Positions 5,589 through 52,990 of a DNA stretch of 64,000 nucleotides are shown here, piece by piece. The stretch's first letter is position 1. Each line of letters opens with the position of its first letter. This DNA comes from Candidatus Methanovirga australis. GTDB taxonomy: Archaea > Methanobacteriota > Methanobacteria > Methanobacteriales > Methanobacteriaceae. The position numbers were made by a program, and so were the translations under genes. Under the pieces are notes generated by a model. It was not told the origin of the DNA, made no database searches, and saw only the letters and a list, made by a program, of their open reading frames with translations. The stretch is taken from assembly GCA_031272765.1 (NCBI GenBank), contig JAISTD010000123.1:323-64322 (forward strand), read 5' to 3'.

Positions 5589-7202
5589 TTAAACAATTTC
5601 ATTTATATATGATTTTAGAATTGAATCTTTATTAACAATTGTAGGTAATTTTGTTGAAGTTATTGATTTACCTGGACTAACTACTTTAACAAATAAACTA
5701 TCACGATAACCTGATTTCATAATATATAACCTATTTAATTCTAATTTTAAATCGTTTTTTAAATTCTTAATTAAGTTTTCTCTAAATTCTAATTTGTTGA
5801 AATCAGCACCACTATGTTCAATAATATAAGAAACACTTTTTTTATCATCTGAAGGAATTACTTGGAAAAAACTAATAAATTCATTAGAATCTTTTTCAGT
5901 TTTTTTTATTACATGATCAAACTGATTAGCAAAAAAAGTGACATTGTTACAAACAGTGTTTTCACTTGCTTTACATTCAAATTCAATATTTGGTGTTTTA
6001 AAAGTTTCACCTTTAAACGAAACAATATCATGAAGATTATAACGATACAATCCAGAATAAGTACTTATTACTATTTCATATAATTTACTCATATCTACTT
6101 CTTCTAAGGTTACTATCTCTCCACCATCAATTGGTAAAAATTCAAAAAATGCTGAAAAAGGAGCTATTGGTCCTGCAGAAATATTTGCTTCAAAAGGCAC
6201 ATTAAATTTTCCTTCACTTGCACCATAACCCCATTCTAAAAAATTCACATCCTCACTTAAATTTCTTTTAATGTCTATTGCACATCTGCCTACACTTGAG
6301 GAAAGCCAACACCCAACAGTTTTAAAATTAGGCCAAATATCTTCAACTTTAAGCTCCCCTTTATCTAAATAAATTTCTCTAAGTTCTCTAACTCTTTCTT
6401 TAGTATCTGGAAGTTTAGATATTAATATTTCTTTTAAAGAGGAGTCAATATCTAAAGAAATAGTATGATCATCTAAATCATCAATCATTTTAGAAGTATT
6501 ATTTCTAATTTTTTTAAGTAAAAAATTAAAATGGGCTAAATTATTGCATATAACTGCAGTAAGATTTTTTGAAGCTAAAGCAAATAAAGCCATTAAATAA
6601 TCTTTATCTTCATTATAAATATCTTTTGCTTGAATTAATTCTTTAGGTAAAATGATTTTAATATTAGAATCCTCATATGTGCTAAGTCCCTGACCAGATG
6701 CTGCCATAATAGGAATTCCTCCTTCAGTAAACCCATAGTCTGAAGAATTTGTAATTCCTAAAACAGGAGGATTATTTAATAAACTTGGGCAAATCTTAGT
6801 TAATTGTATTGATCTAAGTTTCATTACAAGATTTTTAGTTAAAATTCCTCTTTCACTATCAGGGAAATATTTCATATGTCCTGTGGTTCCTGAAGAAACT
6901 ACAAAAGAATGAGTTGAACCATTGAAGAGAATATCACTTTTTCCTTTTTTCATTTTTTCAATATCATCCAAATAATCAGAATAATTGGAAATTGAAACAT
7001 TTTTTTGAAACTCTTCAATTGATTTAATTTCATCAAAAGAATGTTTAATCCCAAATTCAGAGGATTTTCCATATTTTAAAATATCAAACAAAATTTCCTT
7101 TTGAACTTTATAAGGATCTTTTAAAAATTCTTGGAATTTCCCATATAATTTTAATTCATCTAATTCATTTAATGATTCTGGAATACTTCTATTAAAACCC
7201 AT
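5589..7202 (-). CDS. GH3-family adenylate-forming acyl acid-amido synthetase homologue
   Basis: GH3 motifs are present: SSGTTGHMKYFP, GYGASEG and YRYNLHDIV. Length is 537 aa. Confidence 0.85.
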   Translation of the reverse strand: MGFNRSIPESLNELDELKLYGKFQEFLKDPYKVQKEILFDILKYGKSSEFGIKHSFDEIKSIEEFQKNVSISNYSDYLDDIEKMKKGKSDILFNGSTHSFVVSSGTTGHMKYFPDSERGILTKNLVMKLRSIQLTKICPSLLNNPPVLGITNSSDYGFTEGGIPIMAASGQGLSTYEDSNIKIILPKELIQAKDIYNEDKDYLMALFALASKNLTAVICNNLAHFNFLLKKIRNNTSKMIDDLDDHTISLDIDSSLKEILISKLPDTKERVRELREIYLDKGELKVEDIWPNFKTVGCWLSSSVGRCAIDIKRNLSEDVNFLEWGYGASEGKFNVPFEANISAGPIAPFSAFFEFLPIDGGEIVTLEEVDMSKLYEIVISTYSGLYRYNLHDIVSFKGETFKTPNIEFECKASENTVCNNVTFFANQFDHVIKKTEKDSNEFISFFQVIPSDDKKSVSYIIEHSGADFNKLEFRENLIKNLKNDLKLELNRLYIMKSGYRDSLFVKVVSPGKSITSTKLPTIVNKDSILKSYINEIV

Positions 7203-7362
7203 TTAAAAACCCCTTATCTAATGAGAATTTCTATAAACCTCTTAATCTTTATAAATAAACTGATATGAAACACTCTCTTATTTTTAATATTTATTAACAC
7301 CATTATCAATTAATAAAATATAATATAAATACATCAATGGGTTTAATAATAAAATTAAATTT

Positions 7363-9066
7363 CTACTCTTCAATTAATGCAAAGAAAAATCTTCTTTGAG
7401 CTTCATTTACAATTACTCTTGGAGGTTTCAATTGATTTGAAGACACACCTTTAGTTATCATTAAATCCCTATATAATAAATAAGTTTCTTTTTGTAAAAG
7501 ATGTACTTGTGTTTTACCAAGAATATTCTTTTTAATTTTATCACCATAGGATAAATTAAGTTTAGATAATTTTTCCTCTATTGAATCACGAATATCTTCT
7601 TTAGATACTTTATCTGGATTTTCATTAATTTCTAAAAAGAAAACATAAGATGCAGGTGATGAATCATGATCAGGATACATCGAAAATTCCATTAAATCTA
7701 TATTAAATTCTTTCATAGTTCTTTGAACAGCTTCCCTTAAAGCAACTTCAGTAGTTTTCTCACCAGCCAAACTAACATTTTGACTGACCCTATATAAGAA
7801 TTGAACTAATGGCATGTCATTATAACGACCAGTTACACGAATAGCATCACCCATTTTATACCTATAAAATCCTGAAAGATTAGTGATTATTATTTCATAA
7901 ATTTCCCCATCTTCTATTTGATCAATTGTCAAATACTCTTCACCATTAATAGGTCTAAATTCAAAAAAACAAGAATCAGGTACCAACGCCGAATCGGGCG
8001 AATTAATATCAATAGGTGATGAAAAAACGCCTTCTGAAGAAGCAATTCCGTATAAAACTAAATTTAAATCTTCACCAGCATATTTTTCTTTAATTTTGTT
8101 GGTATAATTATCAAATCCTCCCGTACCAATTCCAACGAGTGCTTTCATTTTAGGCCATAATTTTGGGATAATTGGTTCACTAAAACCTTCATTAAATATT
8201 TTTGTCAATTCTTCAGCTCTCTGAGGCATTGCTTGAATTCTTGTCGATAAACTTTCCCTAACCGTACTAGACATGTTAATTTCATCATTAATTGTTCCAT
8301 TATTTATATCATCTACAAGCAATTTCCAATTTTCTTCAATATACACCAATAACTCAACAAAAGCACTGTAAAATGGTGACAAAGTATAGCTAATATCTCT
8401 ATCCATTAAAGCAAATCTTGCAATTATATATCTAACATCAGTATCTGGTTCTGGAAAAAAGGCTTCTGGTGGAGAAGTATATAATAACTGAAGTATTTTT
8501 TCATATCCCCCCAATTCTTCTCCAAGTGTTAATAATGCCTTTGTAGATATTGCTCCATAAGTTATTTTAGGTTTTATTTCTTTTAAGGAAAAATCAGCAA
8601 TATTTAATACCCTCCCATTAATCCAATCTAAACCTAATTTATCCCCCATTAAAGCCATTATATTATCTGCTCCATGTTTAAGAAATACTTCTTGACCTGG
8701 AATAGAGCAAGGTATCTTTTTAGGGTTACCTAATGTTCCAGAAGATTTAGAATAATGATCTACTTTATTAACAGTGATTAGACCATCCATATCATCGATT
8801 ATCATAGATAATATATATTCAATATAGTCATCATATTCTGTTAACGGGACCTTGGATTGATATTCTTCAATAGATTTAATATGACTAAAATCGTACTTTT
8901 GTCCATACTCAGTATTTTTATTCTCATCTAATATTTTAAATAATAATTCTTCATTATATTTAATTGGATCTTCTGTCATTTTTAAAAGATTTTCACGAAC
9001 TTCTTTACCATCCTTATATTTTTGCATGAAGACTTTTCCAGCAACGGACAAATCATTGATGTTCAT
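7363..9066 (-). CDS. GH3-family adenylate-forming acyl acid-amido synthetase homologue (divergent paralogue)
   Basis: Motifs SSGTLGNPKKIP, YGIASSEG and YRYKMGDAIRV. Length is 567 aa. An SD GGTGA precedes the ATG. Confidence 0.85.
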   Translation of the reverse strand: MNINDLSVAGKVFMQKYKDGKEVRENLLKMTEDPIKYNEELLFKILDENKNTEYGQKYDFSHIKSIEEYQSKVPLTEYDDYIEYILSMIIDDMDGLITVNKVDHYSKSSGTLGNPKKIPCSIPGQEVFLKHGADNIMALMGDKLGLDWINGRVLNIADFSLKEIKPKITYGAISTKALLTLGEELGGYEKILQLLYTSPPEAFFPEPDTDVRYIIARFALMDRDISYTLSPFYSAFVELLVYIEENWKLLVDDINNGTINDEINMSSTVRESLSTRIQAMPQRAEELTKIFNEGFSEPIIPKLWPKMKALVGIGTGGFDNYTNKIKEKYAGEDLNLVLYGIASSEGVFSSPIDINSPDSALVPDSCFFEFRPINGEEYLTIDQIEDGEIYEIIITNLSGFYRYKMGDAIRVTGRYNDMPLVQFLYRVSQNVSLAGEKTTEVALREAVQRTMKEFNIDLMEFSMYPDHDSSPASYVFFLEINENPDKVSKEDIRDSIEEKLSKLNLSYGDKIKKNILGKTQVHLLQKETYLLYRDLMITKGVSSNQLKPPRVIVNEAQRRFFFALIEE

Positions 9067-21757: not shown

Positions 21758-22027
21758 AGATTGTCAAAAAGTGTGGAGGTTTTCATGAAAATCCATGTTT
21801 TATATAAACGAAAAACTCGTTTTTCTAAATTATAAAATCAGAGATTTTACAATTAAAGAAAATCAAAGATTTTCTAAGCTAAAACAAACTTTAACTAAAG
21901 AAAATCAAAGATTTTCTAAGCTAAAACAAAATTTAACTAAAGAAAATTAAAGATTTTCTAAGCTAAAACAAGTTTTAACTAAAGAAAATCATGGAAATTG
22001 AAAAACCTCACAAAAGTTTACAACCTC
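21758..22027 (+). mobile_element. MITE family A, copy 2 (270 bp)
   Basis: Same termini as copy 1. A perfect 9-bp TSD, CTATTAAAA, lies at 21749-21757 and 22028-22036. The element ends 39 bp upstream of the next gene's ATG. Confidence 0.78.
21855..21980 (+). repeat. three tandem 42-bp units inside MITE-A copy 2
   Basis: Units at 21855, 21897 and 21939 read AAAGAAAATCAAAGATTTTCTAAGCTAAAACAAACTTTAACT with 1-3 substitutions. Each holds the hairpin GAAAATC-AAA-GATTTTC followed by TAAGCT. Confidence 0.85.
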
Positions 22028-22066: not shown

Positions 22067-23250
22067 ATGTATCTAAACAAAGAAGAAGAAAAAATGTGTC
22101 AAGGAGCATATGGAACCACTGTTGCAAAAAGTATGGAAATAATAGTTGCCTTAGGAGACATTTACGAAGCACCATCTCTCATAGACATCACATCCGCTCA
22201 AATTCTGGAGTATCATACAAAACCATTGGAGAAGCAGGATTAGAATACTTAGAAAACTTATCCAAAGATGGAACAGACCTTGTAAATATTCCCTCAACAC
22301 CAAACCCAGCAGGAATAGACTTAGACAACTGGAAAACATTAAACTTCCCAAAAGAATTCAGTGAAAAACAAAAAAGAATAGTGAAAGCCTATGGAAAACT
22401 TGGAATAAGTGAAACATGCACATGCACACCATACCTAATCGGTAATGTCCCTCGATTAGGAGACCACGCAGCATGGTCAGAATCATCAGCAGTCACATAC
22501 CTAAACTCCATAATTGGAGGTAAAACAAACAGAGAAGGCGGACCATCAGCCTTGGCATCAGCTATTTGCGGCAAAACATCTATGTACGGTTATCATGAAC
22601 CCCAGAACAGAATTGCAAACACCATTTTCAACTTAGACATTAAAATATCTGGTCTGGACTACGGAACAGTAGGATACATAATTGGTAAAGAGATAGGTGA
22701 CGGAGTTCCATACCTCAACCTACAAAACAAATCCAAAAACACCGAACTAAAATCCCTTGGAGCAGCACTATCCTCATCAGGTGCAGTTGCACTATACCAT
22801 ATTGAAAACGAAACACCAGAATATAAACTTGCTAAAAATGATAAAGATTTCAAAACACTTGAAAAAATAACAATAAACAAAGAAGATATTCAAAACACCA
22901 AAAAAAACTTATCAACCACAAACGAAGAAGCCGACTTAGTATGCTTAGGATGCCCACACACTTCATTAGAAGAAATAAAAGAAATAACAACATTTATCAA
23001 AGGAAAAACTCTTAAAAACCAATTATGGGTCTGCACATCCATCAACATCAAAGCATCAGCAGATAGAATGGGTTACACACAAACCATAGAAAACAGTGGA
23101 GGACATATACTTACTGATAATTGTATGGTTGTAGCCCCAATTGAAGAGATGGAATATAAAAATATTGGTGTGAATTCTGTAAAAGCAGCCAACTATGTAC
23201 CAAGTATGTGCAACCTAAATGTCATATACGACAACTTTGAAAACTCATAA
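22067..23250 (+). CDS. AcnX-type (DUF521) dehydratase large subunit, phosphomevalonate dehydratase-like; reading frame interrupted by a 1-nt frameshift near 22203-22206
   Basis: The frame from ATG 22067 gives [46 protein letters not shown] and stops at 22241. The homologous sequence continues in the frame of ORF 22096-23250 ([16 protein letters not shown]...). Adding one T in ATTCTGG restores QISGVSYK. Confidence 0.8.
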
Positions 23251-48455: not shown

Positions 48456-48890
48456 TTAATTAAGGTCTTTGAATAATTCCCATATTTCAGGATATTTATT
48501 GCATATGGCTTCGTCCATTAACATTGAAGCTTCTTTACTAATACTAAATTCTGGGCGTGTTTTTCTCAGATACCTTAAAACTGCCGCTGATTTAGATGAC
48601 CAAAGAGTAATTCGAGGATTTTTTTCTATAACTTTTATAACATCTTTTATATTTTCATCTTCATTACTCTTAGTTTCTTCTATTATCTTATCATTATTTT
48701 CCTGATTTTCAATCTTTGAATTTTGATTATTTTTATTTAATTTTGGTGGATATTTATCTTCATTATCTTTTTTTAATTCATCATTTTTTTTTAGAATATC
48801 TTCTAATGAAACATCATTTTTTAAATCTTCTTCAGAAACAGCTGGAATTAAAGCATCCAACCCTTTTCCTAATCCTGCCTTTTTTGCCAT
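48456..48890 (-). CDS. small protein with a ParB-type N-terminal LGKGLDAL peptide, a low-complexity linker and an unknown C-terminal domain (mini-ParB candidate)
   Basis: The start MAKKAGLGKGLDALIP resembles the extreme N-terminus of chromosomal ParB/Spo0J. There is no ParB/Srx (GERR) domain. Residues 30-95 are K/N/E-rich and the C-terminus is about 50 aa. A strong SD AGGAG lies upstream. Confidence 0.7.
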   Translation of the reverse strand: MAKKAGLGKGLDALIPAVSEEDLKNDVSLEDILKKNDELKKDNEDKYPPKLNKNNQNSKIENQENNDKIIEETKSNEDENIKDVIKVIEKNPRITLWSSKSAAVLRYLRKTRPEFSISKEASMLMDEAICNKYPEIWELFKDLN

Positions 48891-49017
48891 TTGTTTTCTC
48901 CTAATTTAATTAAATTTATTAAAGTTTATTATAATGTAAGACAAAATTTTTTAAAATTTTAATATTGTTTATAGTATTTTATCTAACTTTATTAACATAT
49001 CATATTTTTATTACTTG

Positions 49018-49096
49018 TAAAATCTTTGATTTTATAAGTTAGAGAATCTTAGATTTTAGTTAAAACTTGTTTTAATTTAGAAAATTTTTAATTTTC
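49018..49096. repeat. hairpin modules of the same type as 45375-45880
   Basis: TAAAATC-TTT-GATTTTA-TAAGTT (49018-49040), GAATC-TTA-GATTT (49044-49056), and AATTTA-GAAAATT-TTT-AATTTTC (49074-49096). Confidence 0.6.
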
Positions 49097-49341
49097 TTCA
49101 ATTTTTTTATAAAATATTTTATATTTTTAATAAATTTATTAATTAATCTCTATTTTTATATTATAACAATATAAATGATATTTTTAAAAAATAAGAGTTA
49201 TCATGTAACAAATTAAAATTTAATCAAATAATATTAATTTAATGGCTAAAAAATATGCCATGACCTTGATCTAACCTTTAATATCCAATATAATGATACA
49301 ATAGTTATATTACTCTAAATAACTTATTAACTTCATGATAA

Positions 49342-50118
49342 TTAATCTTGACTTTCTAATTTTAAAAATTCTTTTGCAAGTCTCATGTATGCTTTTGATC
49401 CTCTACTTTCTCTGTCAAAAATTATACATGGTAGCCCATGGCTTGGTGCTTCAGCCAATTTAATATTTCGTGGAATAACACTATTAAAAATATGTTCTTT
49501 TCCACCAAAATAGGCTTTAAGTTCTTTATAAACTTCTCTGCCTAATATGGTTCTTGAGTCGTATAAGGTAAGAACAATTCCTTTTATTGGAGATGGGCTT
49601 TTTAATCTTTTTTCCACTAATTTAATAGTGTTTATTAAATCAGCTACACCTTCCAATGCATAATATTCAGCTTGAATAGGGATAATAACACTATCTGCTG
49701 CGATTAATGCGTTAACAGTTATCACTCCAAGTGATGGGGGAACATCTATTATTATATAATCAAAAAGGTCTTTTACATTACTCAGGAGATTTTTCAATGT
49801 GTTATGAAAATCTTTTTTATTATTTAGTTCAACTTCTATTCCACTAAGCTCTATGTTACTTGGCAAAATAAATAAATTTTTGACAAATGTTGGTTTTATG
49901 ACTTTTTCAACATTAATATCTCCACTAAGGGCTGTGTATATTGTATTTTCTAATTTTAATTTATCTATACCAAAACTTGTTGTTGTATTTGCTTGAGGAT
50001 CGAAATCCACGATTAAAACTGTTTTTCCTAAGATAGCTAACGATGTCCCAAAGTTAACAGCTGTTGTTGTTTTTCCACATCCTCCTTTTTGGTTGATAAT
50101 AGCTATTATTTCACTCAT
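49342..50118 (-). CDS. parA: ParA/Soj-family partition ATPase
   Basis: Deviant Walker A (NQKGGCGKTTTA), DFDPQAN, and a Walker B-like IIIDVPPS. Length is 258 aa. Confidence 0.92.
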   Translation of the reverse strand: MSEIIAIINQKGGCGKTTTAVNFGTSLAILGKTVLIVDFDPQANTTTSFGIDKLKLENTIYTALSGDINVEKVIKPTFVKNLFILPSNIELSGIEVELNNKKDFHNTLKNLLSNVKDLFDYIIIDVPPSLGVITVNALIAADSVIIPIQAEYYALEGVADLINTIKLVEKRLKSPSPIKGIVLTLYDSRTILGREVYKELKAYFGGKEHIFNSVIPRNIKLAEAPSHGLPCIIFDRESRGSKAYMRLAKEFLKLESQD

Positions 50119-50192
50119 TTAATTCATCTCGATTGATTAATATTTTTAGTTTTCTGGATTTTTCTCAGCTTTTCATAGTAAAGATTGATTTC

Positions 50193-50830
50193 AACTTATA
50201 AGTTATAACTTATAAATCACAACTTATAGATCAAGTTCATAGATTTAATTTATTGATATTGGTTTAGAATTACTATATTATTCTTAATTAACTTATAAGA
50301 TTAACTGGTATTAATGAGGTTTATAATAAGATTATCAATATTAATTCGAGCCTGTAAAAAGTCTGGAGTTTTTTTGATATGTTTCACTTATAAGTTATAA
50401 CCTATCATTATATAATGAATAATTTACAATGTTTAAAGTTGTAACTTTTAAGTCTAATTTTTAAGTATATTCGAAGCTGAAATACAACTTTTTAACTAAA
50501 TAAAAGATTTAAAAGCCCAAAATAGATTTATTAGATAAATCCACTATTAAAATCGGAAATATTGATTCATACTAAGACTTCTAAGTTCTAACTTTCAAAT
50601 TATTTCTTATAAGTTTTCACTTTGAACTTATAGTTAATAATTTATAACTTCTTATTTATAACTTTTTAGTTTTAAGTTACAATTAATAATTTAGCACTTA
50701 TACTATATAAGTTTTAAATTAAAAGTGAGTTATTATAACTTATAAGTTATATCTTATAATTGATATCGCATTATTTTTTTATTCGTTCCAATTTTAAATT
50801 TTTTAATATTTTAAATAAATTTATAACTTA
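50193..50830. repeat. array of CTTATAAG-type palindromic iterons (candidate centromere/operator)
   Basis: A perfect 20-bp palindrome TTATAAGTTATAACTTATAA lies at 50196-50215 and a perfect 16-bp palindrome ATAACTTATAAGTTAT at 50735-50750. Exact CTTATAAG occurs at 50195, 50292, 50387, 50606 and 50739, with near copies at 50209, 50223, 50627, 50697, 50753 and 50825. Confidence 0.75.
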
Positions 50831-50901
50831 CTTTTTATAGATACTCTTTTTAAAACATTTAATAAAAATATTTAAATATTTACTAAATAAGAATAATATA
50901 T

Positions 50902-52266
50902 ATGAAAGTTATATTAGCAGGAGCAAGTAGTGCTGTAGGGAAAACAACAATTTCCACGGGCATAATGAAAGCTTTATCCAAACATAATGTTCAACCATTT
51001 AAAGTAGGACCAGATTATATAGATCCAAGTTACCATACCCTTGCAACAGGAAATATATCCAGAAACTTAGATTCTTTTTTTATGAGTGATGACCAAATAA
51101 TTTCCACATATACAAGAGCTATGAAAAATTCCAAAGCTAAATATGGGATTATTGAGGGTGTTAGAGGATTATATGAAGGTATAAGTCCAATCACAGATGT
51201 TGGAAGCACATCATCAATAGCTAAGGCATTAAATGCTCCAATAATTCTTATTTTAGACTCTCGAAGCTTAGTTAAAAGTGCTGCTGCAATAGTTCTTGGA
51301 TTTAAATCATTAGACACTGAATTAAACATAGAAGGAGTTATATTAAATAAAGTTAAGGGGAAAAAACACTATTTAAAAACTAAAAAATCTGTAGAAACAC
51401 TTACTAACACTAAAGTACTAGGTGGAATCCCACGAAATGATAAAATTGCTATTGAACAGAGACATTTAGGATTGGTTCCAGCACTTGAGAAAGCTAAAAT
51501 AGCTGAAAGTATTGAAAATTGGGGCAAGATTGCTGAAAATTATATAGATCTCGATGGTCTAATAGATATAATGAAAGCTTTCAAAACTCCTGAATCTACA
51601 GGCAAACTTTGGAAAACTGGAAATAAAAAACCAATAAAGATAGGGTTAGCAAAAGATGAAGTATTTAACTTCTACTATCAAGATAATATTGATGCATTAA
51701 AGGAAAATAATGCAAAAATCGTTCAGTTTTCCCCGTTACACGATGATTGTCTTCCTGATGTGGATGGACTATATATTGGTGGTGGTTATCCTGAAGTTTT
51801 TAAGAAGGAATTAGAAAGAAATTCATCTATTAGAAAATCTATTTTAAAATTTCATAATAATGAAAACCATATTTATGGAGAATGTGGGGGATTAATATAT
51901 CTTTCAAAATCAATTGATAAAGGCAAAATGTGTGGCTTGATACCTTTCAACTCAACTATGACTTCTAAAGTTCAAGGACTAAGTTATAATATAATTAAAT
52001 CAAAGAAAGATAACTTGATCTCTCAAAAGGATGAAATTTTTAAAGGGCATGAGTTCCATTATACCAAGTTAAATAATGTTGATATTAATAATGCTGATGG
52101 TAATTTCAATTTTAAAATTCGAAGAGGGCGAGGGATCATTGATGGATACGATGGATTGAGTTATAAGAATACTTTAGTAAATTATACACACATTCATCCT
52201 TGTTCGTGCCCTAATTTTGCTTATAACTTCACTAAAAACATAGCAGAAAGTAGAAATTTTTTTTAG
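50902..52266 (+). CDS. a,c-diamide synthase (CbiA/CfbB family: cobyrinate or Ni-sirohydrochlorin)
   Basis: N-terminal ATP-binding [10 protein letters not shown] and [13 protein letters not shown], plus a C-terminal GATase with GECGGLIYL. Sequence alone cannot distinguish CbiA from CfbB. Confidence 0.88.
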
Positions 52267-52561
52267 GTTCATGATATTCACATAGTAGAAGTTCATAGTA
52301 TAGTTGTCATTTTAACTTTTTCAATTCTAAATATTTTTCATTAGGTTTTTTATATTTTATAGTTTATTTCTAAACTTTTCAAAATAAACTATATATAAGT
52401 TATAATCATAGCAAATAATAATTTAATAATATCTATTGTATAATCTATTGTATGATATTGTATCTGATTATAATTAATATGAAATTTAGTAAATTAAATT
52501 TGTATTAAACTTAGTAAATTGTAATATAAACACTATTAAATTACTTATAAAGGTTTTAATC

Positions 52562-52990
52562 ATGAATTATGTGGAAGGTACTGTGAAAAAGTATGTTAGA
52601 GAGTATTCAAGAAGATTGAAAGATGGTAAAAAGAAAAAATATCAGACTGAACAAGTTCAAATAATGTTGTCCAAGAAAGATGATATTTTTCAAGAGGAGG
52701 AAAATGTTGTTGTTCTGAGTAAAGAAGTTTTTCTTAAGGAATGCGAAAAATTAAATTCTATAATCAAAAAACAAAAAAATAGAATAGAATCACATAAAGA
52801 GTTAGAATCTTCAAAATTTGATCAAAAAGAAGAATTTGAAGAAAAATTTAGTAATTTAAATGAAAGTTATATTTCTATTCAAGAAGAGTATGATTTGTTA
52901 AATGAGAAGTTTAATTTACTTAGGAAAGAAATTAAGTATCATAAAAATTTGAATGAGAAACTAAGAGACCTTATTTTAAATCTAACATGA
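52562..52990 (+). CDS. hypothetical coiled-coil protein
   Basis: 142 aa, rich in K and E with a heptad-like C-terminal half. An SD-like AGGT lies upstream. No recognisable motif. Confidence 0.5.
   Translation: MNYVEGTVKKYVREYSRRLKDGKKKKYQTEQVQIMLSKKDDIFQEEENVVVLSKEVFLKECEKLNSIIKKQKNRIESHKELESSKFDQKEEFEEKFSNLNESYISIQEEYDLLNEKFNLLRKEIKYHKNLNEKLRDLILNLT

Follow-up and report, generated by a model that had tools for sequence, protein, structure and literature searches.

A TTATAA heptad array beside a Soj-type ATPase gene and segB: a predicted chromosomal partition site in the Methanobacteriaceae

Chromosome segregation is poorly understood in archaea. Here we describe a locus of Candidatus Methanovirga australis, analysed within a stretch of 64,000 nucleotides (contig JAISTD010000123.1, positions 323 to 64,322; hereafter, the window), in which a non-coding spacer of 783 bp carries arrays of a 7-bp repeat. 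The spacer is flanked on one side by a minus-strand gene encoding a ParA-type partition ATPase, followed by segB, and on the other side by the plus-strand gene cfbB. The arrays and their strict register, the homology of the second protein to SegB, and the co-occurrence of repeats and gene pair throughout the family suggest that the spacer is the cis site (“segS”, a centromere and operator in one) of a SegAB-type partition system that the Methanobacteriaceae carry on the chromosome, predicted to be bound by SegB. The probability that we assign to this reading is roughly 0.75. The features of the locus are:

48456-48890, minus strand: segB, encoding the SegB orthologue (“mini-ParB” in a preliminary description of this DNA), 144 aa, assigned by homology to SegB structures
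48891-49341: gap between the ATPase gene and segB, 451 bp, AT-rich, with no heptad array
49342-50118, minus strand: gene of the partition ATPase (SegA role), 258 aa, with the deviant Walker A motif KGGCGKT
50119-50901: spacer between the ATPase gene (parA) and cfbB, 783 bp, 18% G+C
50194-50242, no strand: proximal (segA-side) array of about 7 units, candidate operator/centromere
50291-50299: lone copy of CTTATAAG, made of one perfect hexamer flanked by C and G
50386-50406: internal cluster of three heptads, with the exact 13-mer TTATAAGTTATAA at 50388-50400
50436-50456: degenerate cluster of three heptads (AAGTTGT AACTTTT AAGTCTA), with a two-mismatch 13-mer at 50439
50577-50765, no strand: distal (cfbB-side) array of about 27 units [C/G]TTATAA in one 7-bp register, candidate main centromere array
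50902-52266, plus strand: cfbB, Ni-sirohydrochlorin a,c-diamide synthase (NCBIfam, E = 4e-184)
52393-52405: isolated one-mismatch 13-mer ATATAAGTTATAA, downstream of cfbB

The repeat unit and its register

The spacer contains no open reading frame (ORF) of at least 40 aa and, since an Rfam scan of the whole window matched no RNA family, it can be regarded as free of known RNAs. A scan for σ70 promoters and terminators was set aside, as it is not meaningful in an archaeon. What distinguishes the spacer is a heptad, composed of the palindromic hexamer TTATAA and one additional base, which recurs in a strict 7-bp register that becomes evident when the sequence is printed in steps of seven. That additional base is C or G in 72% of the cases, as counted over 27 related loci.

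The preliminary description had instead taken an 8-mer, CTTATAAG, as the iteron unit within a divergent spacer of some 780 bp. The spacer length was right, and so were the five exact copies of the 8-mer, which are all those of the window (50195-50746; window shuffles predict 2.4 copies per whole 64 kb), and the two perfect palindromes, of 20 bp (TTATAAGTTATAACTTATAA, 50196-50215) and 16 bp (ATAACTTATAAGTTAT, 50735-50750), each of them found where it had been placed. The 8-mer is, however, not the unit, which is the heptad. Its one-mismatch copies are as many as expected in the window (56 found, 56 expected), and the class is thus not enriched; the near copies within the spacer, announced as at least six, are only four at one mismatch or less. 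Regarding the two isolated copies reported outside the spacer, the one at about 49033 is actually TTTATAAG, with one mismatch, and the one at about 52395 is not the 8-mer but the one-mismatch 13-mer at 52393-52405, which lies within chance expectation.

The 7-bp periodicity of the array is by far the strongest in the window. Tandem Repeats Finder (TRF) reports 13.1 copies of a 14-bp period at 50577-50759 (consensus ACTTATAAGTTATA), 19.7 copies of a 7-bp period at 50628-50765, and 5.1 copies of the same period at 50193-50228, while the identity at lags 7, 14, 21 and 28 amounts to 0.58-0.61, versus about 0.32 at other lags. As a null model, 1000 dinucleotide-preserving shuffles of the spacer itself were generated, none of which attains the observed values: 17 hexamers belong to in-register chains of three or more (0.2 ± 0.8 in the shuffles, with 6 as the largest value), the exact 13-mer TTATAASTTATAA is present four times (shuffle mean, 0.003), and the best lag-7 identity is 0.593 (0.414 ± 0.025 in the shuffles). 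Within the window, the exact 13-mer is confined to the spacer, and so are six of the seven copies with one mismatch at most (about 1.4 such matches are expected per window); the isolated copy downstream of cfbB may be either a stray SegB site or a product of chance.

The distal array lies 460-650 bp from the start codon of the ATPase gene and 137-325 bp from cfbB, and includes both the 16-bp palindrome and an exact 13-mer (50733-50745). The core of the proximal array is formed by three perfect heptads, TTATAAgTTATAAcTTATAA, which are the same as the 20-bp palindrome and lie 78-97 bp upstream of the start codon. An alternation of C and G spacer bases that would keep the 8-mers palindromic was considered and rejected, given that 45 neighbour pairs alternate and 44 do not (27 loci). 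As there is no preferred alternation, the long palindromes can be understood as a local by-product of the palindromic hexamer, and not as the functional unit.

A Soj-type ATPase and a SegB-type partner

The ATPase is of the Soj/ParA type (Pfam AAA_31, E = 9e-64), with the domain starting at residue 3 and, with its 258 aa and no N-terminal DNA-binding domain, it belongs among the small ParA proteins (about 200-260 aa). Compared with solved structures, it reaches 181-227 bits with chromosomal ParA/Soj, 81-86 bits with archaeal MinD and 72 bits with the SegA of S. solfataricus (7DUT), and it is 45-49% identical to bacterial Soj proteins. Judging from its sequence, the protein would be functionally equivalent to SegA, while probably representing a separate lineage of the bacterial type. 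The gene order is that of SegAB systems, i.e., the ATPase gene first and then segB, both on the minus strand.

As for the 144-aa partner, a phmmer search against the PDB matches only the SegB of S. solfataricus (7DUV/7DV2, E = 3.3e-11), and hmmsearch with the family profile again retrieves only these entries (E = 9e-12). No Pfam or NCBIfam family matched the protein, hence neither did the ParB CTPase/HTH (helix-turn-helix) domain. Of ParB, the “mini-ParB” has only the N-terminal ParA-binding peptide; the DNA-binding domain is a SegB-type ribbon-helix-helix (RHH), which makes the layout of the locus type Ib or SegAB-like, and not ParB/parS-like. The published SegB signature, K/R-D/N-P-K/R-I-G/T-V/L-W-S (PMC12139799), appears as K-N-P-R-I-T-L-W-S, within a C-terminal domain of the form KNPRITLWS...PEFSISKEAS. 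In it, Arg93 replaces the DNA-inserting Lys52 of Sulfolobus SegB, which matches the Arg found at this position in euryarchaeal SegBs (PMC8682754), and the loop proline responsible for dimer-dimer contacts on DNA is kept (Pro113, equivalent to Pro72 in Sulfolobus).

The family comprises more than 1800 members at E ≤ 0.001. Among its best 120 matches, all those with an organism name come from Methanobrevibacter, and they are usually mis-annotated as “AAA family ATPase” or as hypothetical proteins; a search for SegB in phage records gave no match. Three parts can be distinguished in the alignment: an N-terminal peptide, GLGKGLD(A/S)LIP (GLGKGLDALIP in the window), an acidic linker that varies, and a C-terminal domain that is highly conserved. 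Apart from the peptide, the N-terminus and the linker are poorly conserved or of low complexity, so that, by homology, the protein can be described as an RHH domain with a flexible tail. In an alignment of 32 sequences, neither the recognition strand (NPRITLWS) nor the loop proline varies, and in one of 36 sequences only two from Methanobacterium differ, at I94, T95 or L96. This invariant strand is paired with an invariant hexamer, which counts in favour of SegB being the protein that reads the heptads.

Beside the closest bacterial ParA homologues, ParB proteins are encoded whose ParA-binding motif is matched by the N-terminal peptide (among loci L019-L068, examples are GLGKGLGALIP in L019 and ALGKGLEALIP in L021). 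In ParB, the function of this peptide is the binding of ParA (PMC12462528), and the N-termini of euryarchaeal SegBs had been called only poorly conserved and of unknown function (10.1101/2025.02.07.637068). Since the ATPase is nearer to bacterial Soj than to SegA, and its partner starts with a ParB-type peptide, the predicted machine is a hybrid, in which a Soj-type motor and a ParB-type activating peptide are combined with a SegB-type RHH reader of DNA. Small proteins of 91-92 aa encoded downstream of ParA were also observed in a Thermoplasmata MAG (metagenome-assembled genome; L052:4750-5028) and a Micrarchaeota MAG (L069:4142-4417). Their N-terminal motif, RRGLDDLISL or KKGGLDSLIS, is similar to that of ParB, and one stretch of each resembles an RHH β-strand (TRTIGFKVTDRQYDTY). 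They may constitute a further family of miniature centromere-binding proteins that carry a ParB-type peptide.

The two genes abut or overlap in 7 of the 9 relatives inspected, whereas they are separated by 451 bp in the window and by about 260 bp of AT-rich DNA in the closest relative (L001:4805-5063). In the window, this gap contains two weak, two-mismatch 13-mers (49008 and 49032) and a 24-bp imperfect repeat (49006-49058). Given the presence of the gap, its lack of a heptad array and the compact arrangement of the other genera, it presumably holds a separate promoter for segB, which may have been acquired in this lineage.

Heptads and their setting across the family

Using the ATPase as query, 80 loci were collected from species-representative genomes, comprising 61 bacterial and archaeal ParA loci from elsewhere and 19 from Methanobacteriaceae, i.e., from “Ca. 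Methanovirga” (the closest, at 91% identity), Methanobrevibacter, Methanobacterium and Methanothermobacter. The motif is conserved in these relatives: of the 19 Methanobacteriaceae loci, 18 contain the exact 13-mer TTATAASTTATAA, the sole exception being one whose sequence ends 117 bp upstream of the gene, and none of the other 61 contains it. With up to one mismatch, 93 copies were found, and all but two of them (L002, at -1841, and L016, at +2574) lie in non-coding DNA either 5' of the ATPase gene, where they span from -836 to -26, or 3' of segB; in L012, the next gene stands between segB and the site, which is about 1 kb downstream. The control loci, which amount to 456 kb and include nine AT-rich ones (22-36% G+C), hold a single match of this kind. 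Likewise, in-register chains of three or more hexamers occur in all the Methanobacteriaceae loci whose upstream DNA is covered and in none of the controls. The motif does not change between genomes of 27% and 49% G+C (the latter being Methanothermobacter, L020), and the heptads stay with the ATPase-segB pair while its upstream neighbour varies among cfbB, a trpB-like gene and thrS, cfbB occupying that place only in the window and in L001. The spacer of L001 can be aligned only in its cfbB-proximal part, the region of the cfbB promoter, yet it bears heptad arrays, which indicates that the positions of the arrays turn over while the motif is maintained.

The architecture of the arrays differs among genera. 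In most of the printed loci of Methanobacterium and Methanobrevibacter, an ATATATA element and a GGAGG ribosome-binding site enclose 3-6 heptads, which lie at about -60 to -19; this is where an archaeal repressor would block initiation. Methanobacterium has a block of five heptads at about -55 to -20, and another array follows just past the stop codon of segB (the loci with arrays downstream of segB are L013-L018). In Methanobrevibacter L005, about 400 bp are occupied by arrays, which reach as far as the start codon. A Methanobrevibacter-like metagenome contig (L171:1765-2539) carries, between segB and a radical-SAM gene, 14 triple-heptad clusters (TTATAAsTTATAAsTTATAA) spaced by about 45-100 bp, mostly by about 55 bp; this layout is sopC-like and unlike the continuous arrays seen elsewhere. 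A triple-heptad site was also observed beside the same conserved gene in two Methanobrevibacter-type contigs (L009:3663-3682, about 3.5 kb downstream of the start of the ATPase gene, and L100:1336-1355), which hints that, as in Sulfolobus, SegB may have secondary sites close to the operon but not within it.

Outside the family, the 164-kb plasmid pMETEV01 of Methanohalobium evestigatum (L239, NC_014254.1 161943-163468) encodes an “ATP-binding protein” and then a hypothetical protein of 178 aa, whose C-terminus is SegB-like (KNPRVGAWS; tblastn E = 8e-5). Upstream of them there are repeats that also have a 7-bp period, namely 4.1 copies of CTATAAA and 3.1 copies of TATAAAG (L239 2413-2441 and 2503-2524). 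This SegB-type cassette with heptads of its own links SegAB to the type Ib plasmid systems.

Could the arrays be an operator and nothing else, at which SegB or another repressor autoregulates the ATPase and segB genes, and perhaps the divergent cfbB, with no role as a centromere? The proximal heptads that most genera have between a TATA-like element and the ribosome-binding site agree with this idea, RHH proteins are classic repressors, and the sites of Sulfolobus, according to a review, might also be regulatory (PMC5120986). Nonetheless, an operator needs only a few sites, and yet the window has some 27 in-register heptads several hundred bp away from the start codon, and L005 has its arrays of about 400 bp. 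Neither do the arrays past the stop codon of segB in Methanobacterium agree with it, nor the spaced clusters downstream of segB in L171, which are typical of plasmid centromeres, nor the retention of the ATPase-binding N-terminal peptide in SegB. Furthermore, the roles of operator and centromere coincide in type Ib systems and are not mutually exclusive. An exclusive operator function is, all in all, unlikely.

A scan of metagenomes for three perfect heptads yielded at least 120 loci. Among the matches listed, ten belong to Methanobacteriaceae by gene content; the ATPase-segB pair is adjacent in seven of them, another one consists of the syntenic upstream neighbour, where the contig ends, and the remaining two are a few kb away or ambiguous. 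Most of the other matches listed in the metagenome and viral scans are perfect heptanucleotide microsatellites of a single unit in unrelated DNA, and hence a pattern search alone is not specific. Perfect microsatellites of (TTATAAC)n, (TTATAAG)n or (TTATAAA)n were observed, for instance, at L149:7347-7387, L202:2396-2443, L233:1416-1470, L197:1236-1297, L156:8672-8873 (plant-like, with a P450 gene) and L110:6-173. The contigs concerned have 26-46% G+C and show no link to ParA or SegB.

Are the arrays of the Methanobacteriaceae, then, functionless AT-rich microsatellites of the same sort, or sites for some other factor? Such a factor could be TBP/TFB, bound to multiple TATA-like elements, a regulator of cfbB, or a histone or a nucleoid protein with a preference for flexible TA steps. 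It is true that perfect (TTATAAC)n and (TTATAAG)n exist in viral, eukaryote-like and bacterial contigs without any relation to partition genes, and that TTATAA resembles the archaeal TATA box. However, those microsatellites consist of perfect copies of one unit, whereas the arrays described here mix C and G spacers and, despite being degenerate, remain in register; moreover, the motif is conserved over the whole range of G+C contents mentioned above, and only beside the ATPase-segB pair. That association is not with cfbB, which disagrees with a cfbB regulator, and TBP predicts neither the C/G spacer nor the 7-bp register. This explanation, in any of its variants, is very unlikely.

The preliminary description had also contemplated the iterons of a replication origin. 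In that case the repeats would act as Orc1/Cdc6 origin recognition boxes (ORBs) at both sides of an AT-rich unwinding element, and indeed the spacer is long, AT-rich and non-coding, about 330 bp of unique AT-rich DNA separate its repeat clusters, and partition loci are often near origins (e.g., oriC1 adjoins segAB in Metallosphaera sedula). Archaeal origins are defined by ORB repeats adjoining an initiator gene, orc1/cdc6 or whiP (PMC4010727), but no Orc1/Cdc6 was found among the 24 ORFs scanned out of the 30 of at least 200 aa in the window, the neighbours being purL, cfbB, pyrB and Hef, nor was any initiator seen within ±4 kb in the relatives (by ORF inspection only). The cumulative GC skew does not turn at the locus but declines over the window, with only a bump due to gene orientation at 45-53 kb, although this evidence is weak, as skew is a poor guide in many archaea. 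A 7-bp array of palindromic hexamers is, besides, unlike ORB elements, which measure 13-36 bp. Finally, the repeats follow the ATPase-segB pair through varied neighbourhoods, are also found 3' of segB and accompany a plasmid-borne cassette, which points to a partition site rather than to a unique chromosomal origin, so that a replication origin, or a part of one, is hardly tenable here.

The setting of the locus is chromosomal: the window contains the housekeeping genes alaS, thrS, purL, pyrB, cfbB, topo VI and that of ribosomal protein L10, and the heptads lie amid them, not on a plasmid as in type Ib systems. Some further features of the window deserve mention. Downstream of cfbB, an ORF at 52562-52990 encodes a lysine/glutamate-rich, probably coiled-coil protein of 142 aa with no family match; it is preceded by the isolated near-13-mer at 52393 and was not seen in the loci of the relatives inspected. 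Two genes that belong to the GH3 family of acyl-acid amido synthetases and stand in tandem (5589-9066; E = 1e-48 and 7e-64) are set within an otherwise methanogen housekeeping region. A 42-bp tandem repeat (21854-22020; 3.3 copies with 94% matches, or 2 copies in a period-84 version) sits directly upstream of a gene of the aconitase-X family (22096-23250).

A predicted centromere and its place among partition systems

The interpretation of the spacer as a centromere and operator, which the preliminary description had already put forward, is thus favoured as a prediction by the SegB-family partner, by the site architecture known from Sulfolobus and by the way in which the heptads follow the ATPase-segB pair across loci. 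How such a site would work can be outlined by analogy with the work on Sulfolobus and on type Ib plasmids. Each palindromic hexamer TTATAA would be the site of one SegB dimer, which would insert its RHH β-sheet (NPRITLWS, with Arg93 instead of the Lys52 of Sulfolobus) into the major groove. Because the hexamers recur every 7 bp, successive dimers would touch each other through the conserved α2-α3 loop (Pro113), coating the arrays in a filament-like manner as a left-handed protein helix. The large nucleoprotein complex built in this way on about 27 + 7 + a few heptads would display many flexible GLGKGLDALIP peptides, and these would bind nucleoid-bound, ATP-charged dimers of the Soj-type ATPase and stimulate the hydrolysis of ATP. 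It would then be for the usual ParA gradient (diffusion-ratchet) mechanism to move or position the chromosome copy bearing the array, and the array nearest to the ATPase gene would let SegB repress its own operon.

Experimentally defined SegB sites come only from the Sulfolobales. In S. solfataricus, chromatin immunoprecipitation sequencing (ChIP-seq), gel shifts (EMSA) and footprinting led to the motif TCTAGA-S-TCTAGA (10.1101/2025.02.07.637068), and the crystal structure shows two RHH dimers per site, one on each half site, that form a left-handed corkscrew on the DNA, which has been likened to the model of the ω protein on its heptads (PMC8682754). For S. acidocaldarius, another group describes segS as consisting of three 7-bp repeats (PMC12139799). 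The locus described here shares with these systems (SSO0034/0035 in S. solfataricus, and that of S. acidocaldarius) a segB gene downstream of that of a Walker-type ParA ATPase, a small protein with a disordered N-terminus predicted to activate the ATPase and a SegB-type RHH C-terminus, the conservation of the loop residue equivalent to Pro72, and a hexamer–S–hexamer cis site with a 7-bp step upstream of the ATPase gene. Unlike in them, the hexamer is TTATAA instead of TCTAGA, with only the T and A flanking S in common; the base-contacting Lys75 is replaced by Ser; the N-terminal peptide is the bacterial ParB motif LG(K/R)GL.AL; and the ATPase scores 227 bits with bacterial Soj versus 72 bits with SegA. 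Besides, the Methanobacteriaceae have long tandem arrays at the locus itself, of tens of heptads or up to 14 triple-heptad clusters, whereas the Sulfolobus sites are about 32-49 sites of 13 bp scattered over the chromosome, mostly single and mostly intragenic.

The similarity also extends to the type Ib systems of plasmids, such as δ/ω of pSM19035 (with WATCACW heptads), ParF/ParG-parH of TP228 and par2 of pB171. These have a small ParA without an N-terminal DNA-binding domain and an RHH dimer with a flexible, ATPase-stimulating tail, together with contiguous short repeats (of 7 bp in the case of ω), in either orientation, that lie just upstream of the operon and double as operator. The left-handed wrapping of DNA by consecutive dimers is predicted to be common to both, and some of the relatives have arrays upstream and downstream of the operon, an arrangement comparable to that of parC1 and parC2, which flank the pB171 operon on both sides. 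The differences are, in addition to the chromosomal setting among housekeeping genes, the absence of sequence similarity to ω or ParG, the palindromic nature of the repeat unit itself, and arrays far longer than the 7-10 heptads of ω. With the bacterial ParABS systems (Soj, Spo0J-ParB and parS), by contrast, the likeness is limited to the Soj-type ATPase and to the ParB motif at the start of its partner. There is no ParB CTPase/HTH domain, and the 16-bp parS (TGTTNCACGTGAAACA) has no match with one mismatch or less in the window, the best one having two mismatches and lying inside a transporter gene. As the DNA would be read by an RHH domain on heptads, neither a CTP-dependent clamp nor sliding is to be expected.

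Several points weigh against our reading. Its support consists of homology and co-occurrence, and the specificity of SegB has to be deduced rather than transferred from Sulfolobus, because the hexamers differ at four of six positions. The scattered, mostly single and intragenic sites of Sulfolobus are themselves a different format from arrays, and TBP or a nucleoid protein could bind as well, given the resemblance of TTATAA to the archaeal TATA box. The operator role is less clear in the window than in other genera, since a distance of 78-97 bp separates the start codon from the closest perfect heptads, and the largest array lies on the cfbB side. In an AlphaFold2 model of the SegB monomer (based on the 32-sequence alignment), the mean pLDDT is 58.6 and the recognition strand appears as a helix, which gives no independent support to the fold; such low confidence is expected when an obligate RHH dimer is folded as a monomer, and the assignment therefore rests on the sequence homology to the SegB crystals. 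Lastly, the motif counts cover 64 kb of this contig and about 8 kb per relative, a scope that falls short of genome-wide uniqueness.

What is new in all this? The existence of SegB homologues in Methanobacteriales was already known from sequence, but no account of a SegB site in this order came up in literature searches, and the heptad site, the architecture of the arrays and the hybrid make-up of the machine appear so far undescribed. In the euryarchaeon Thermococcus sibiricus, a search with the Sulfolobus motif had yielded no site close to segAB, and the motif was suggested to be “more degenerate” there (10.1101/2025.02.07.637068). Beyond the reading of this spacer, we give slightly better than even odds to a broader picture as a whole: that this is the first euryarchaeal chromosomal centromere defined in sequence, a family-wide segS of tens of TTATAA-S heptads, read by a chimeric machine made of a Soj ATPase and a protein that joins the ParB peptide to the RHH of SegB; that it has been remodelled between genera into continuous arrays, operon-flanking pairs or some 14 spaced clusters; and that the same SegB/heptad logic operates on a methanogen megaplasmid.

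Across the family Methanobacteriaceae as a whole, the spacer and its counterparts thus offer a candidate site that is concrete, conserved and easy to test. The dominant methanogens of gut and rumen belong to this family, which also includes Methanothermobacter, a genetically tractable genus. The comparison with the Sulfolobales suggests that proteins of the SegB family generally read hexamers spaced by 7 bp, and the composition of the methanogen system suggests an evolutionary hybrid of bacterial and archaeal parts. From a more applied perspective, it also suggests a practical use of heptad arrays, as a cassette that could stabilise methanogen vectors.

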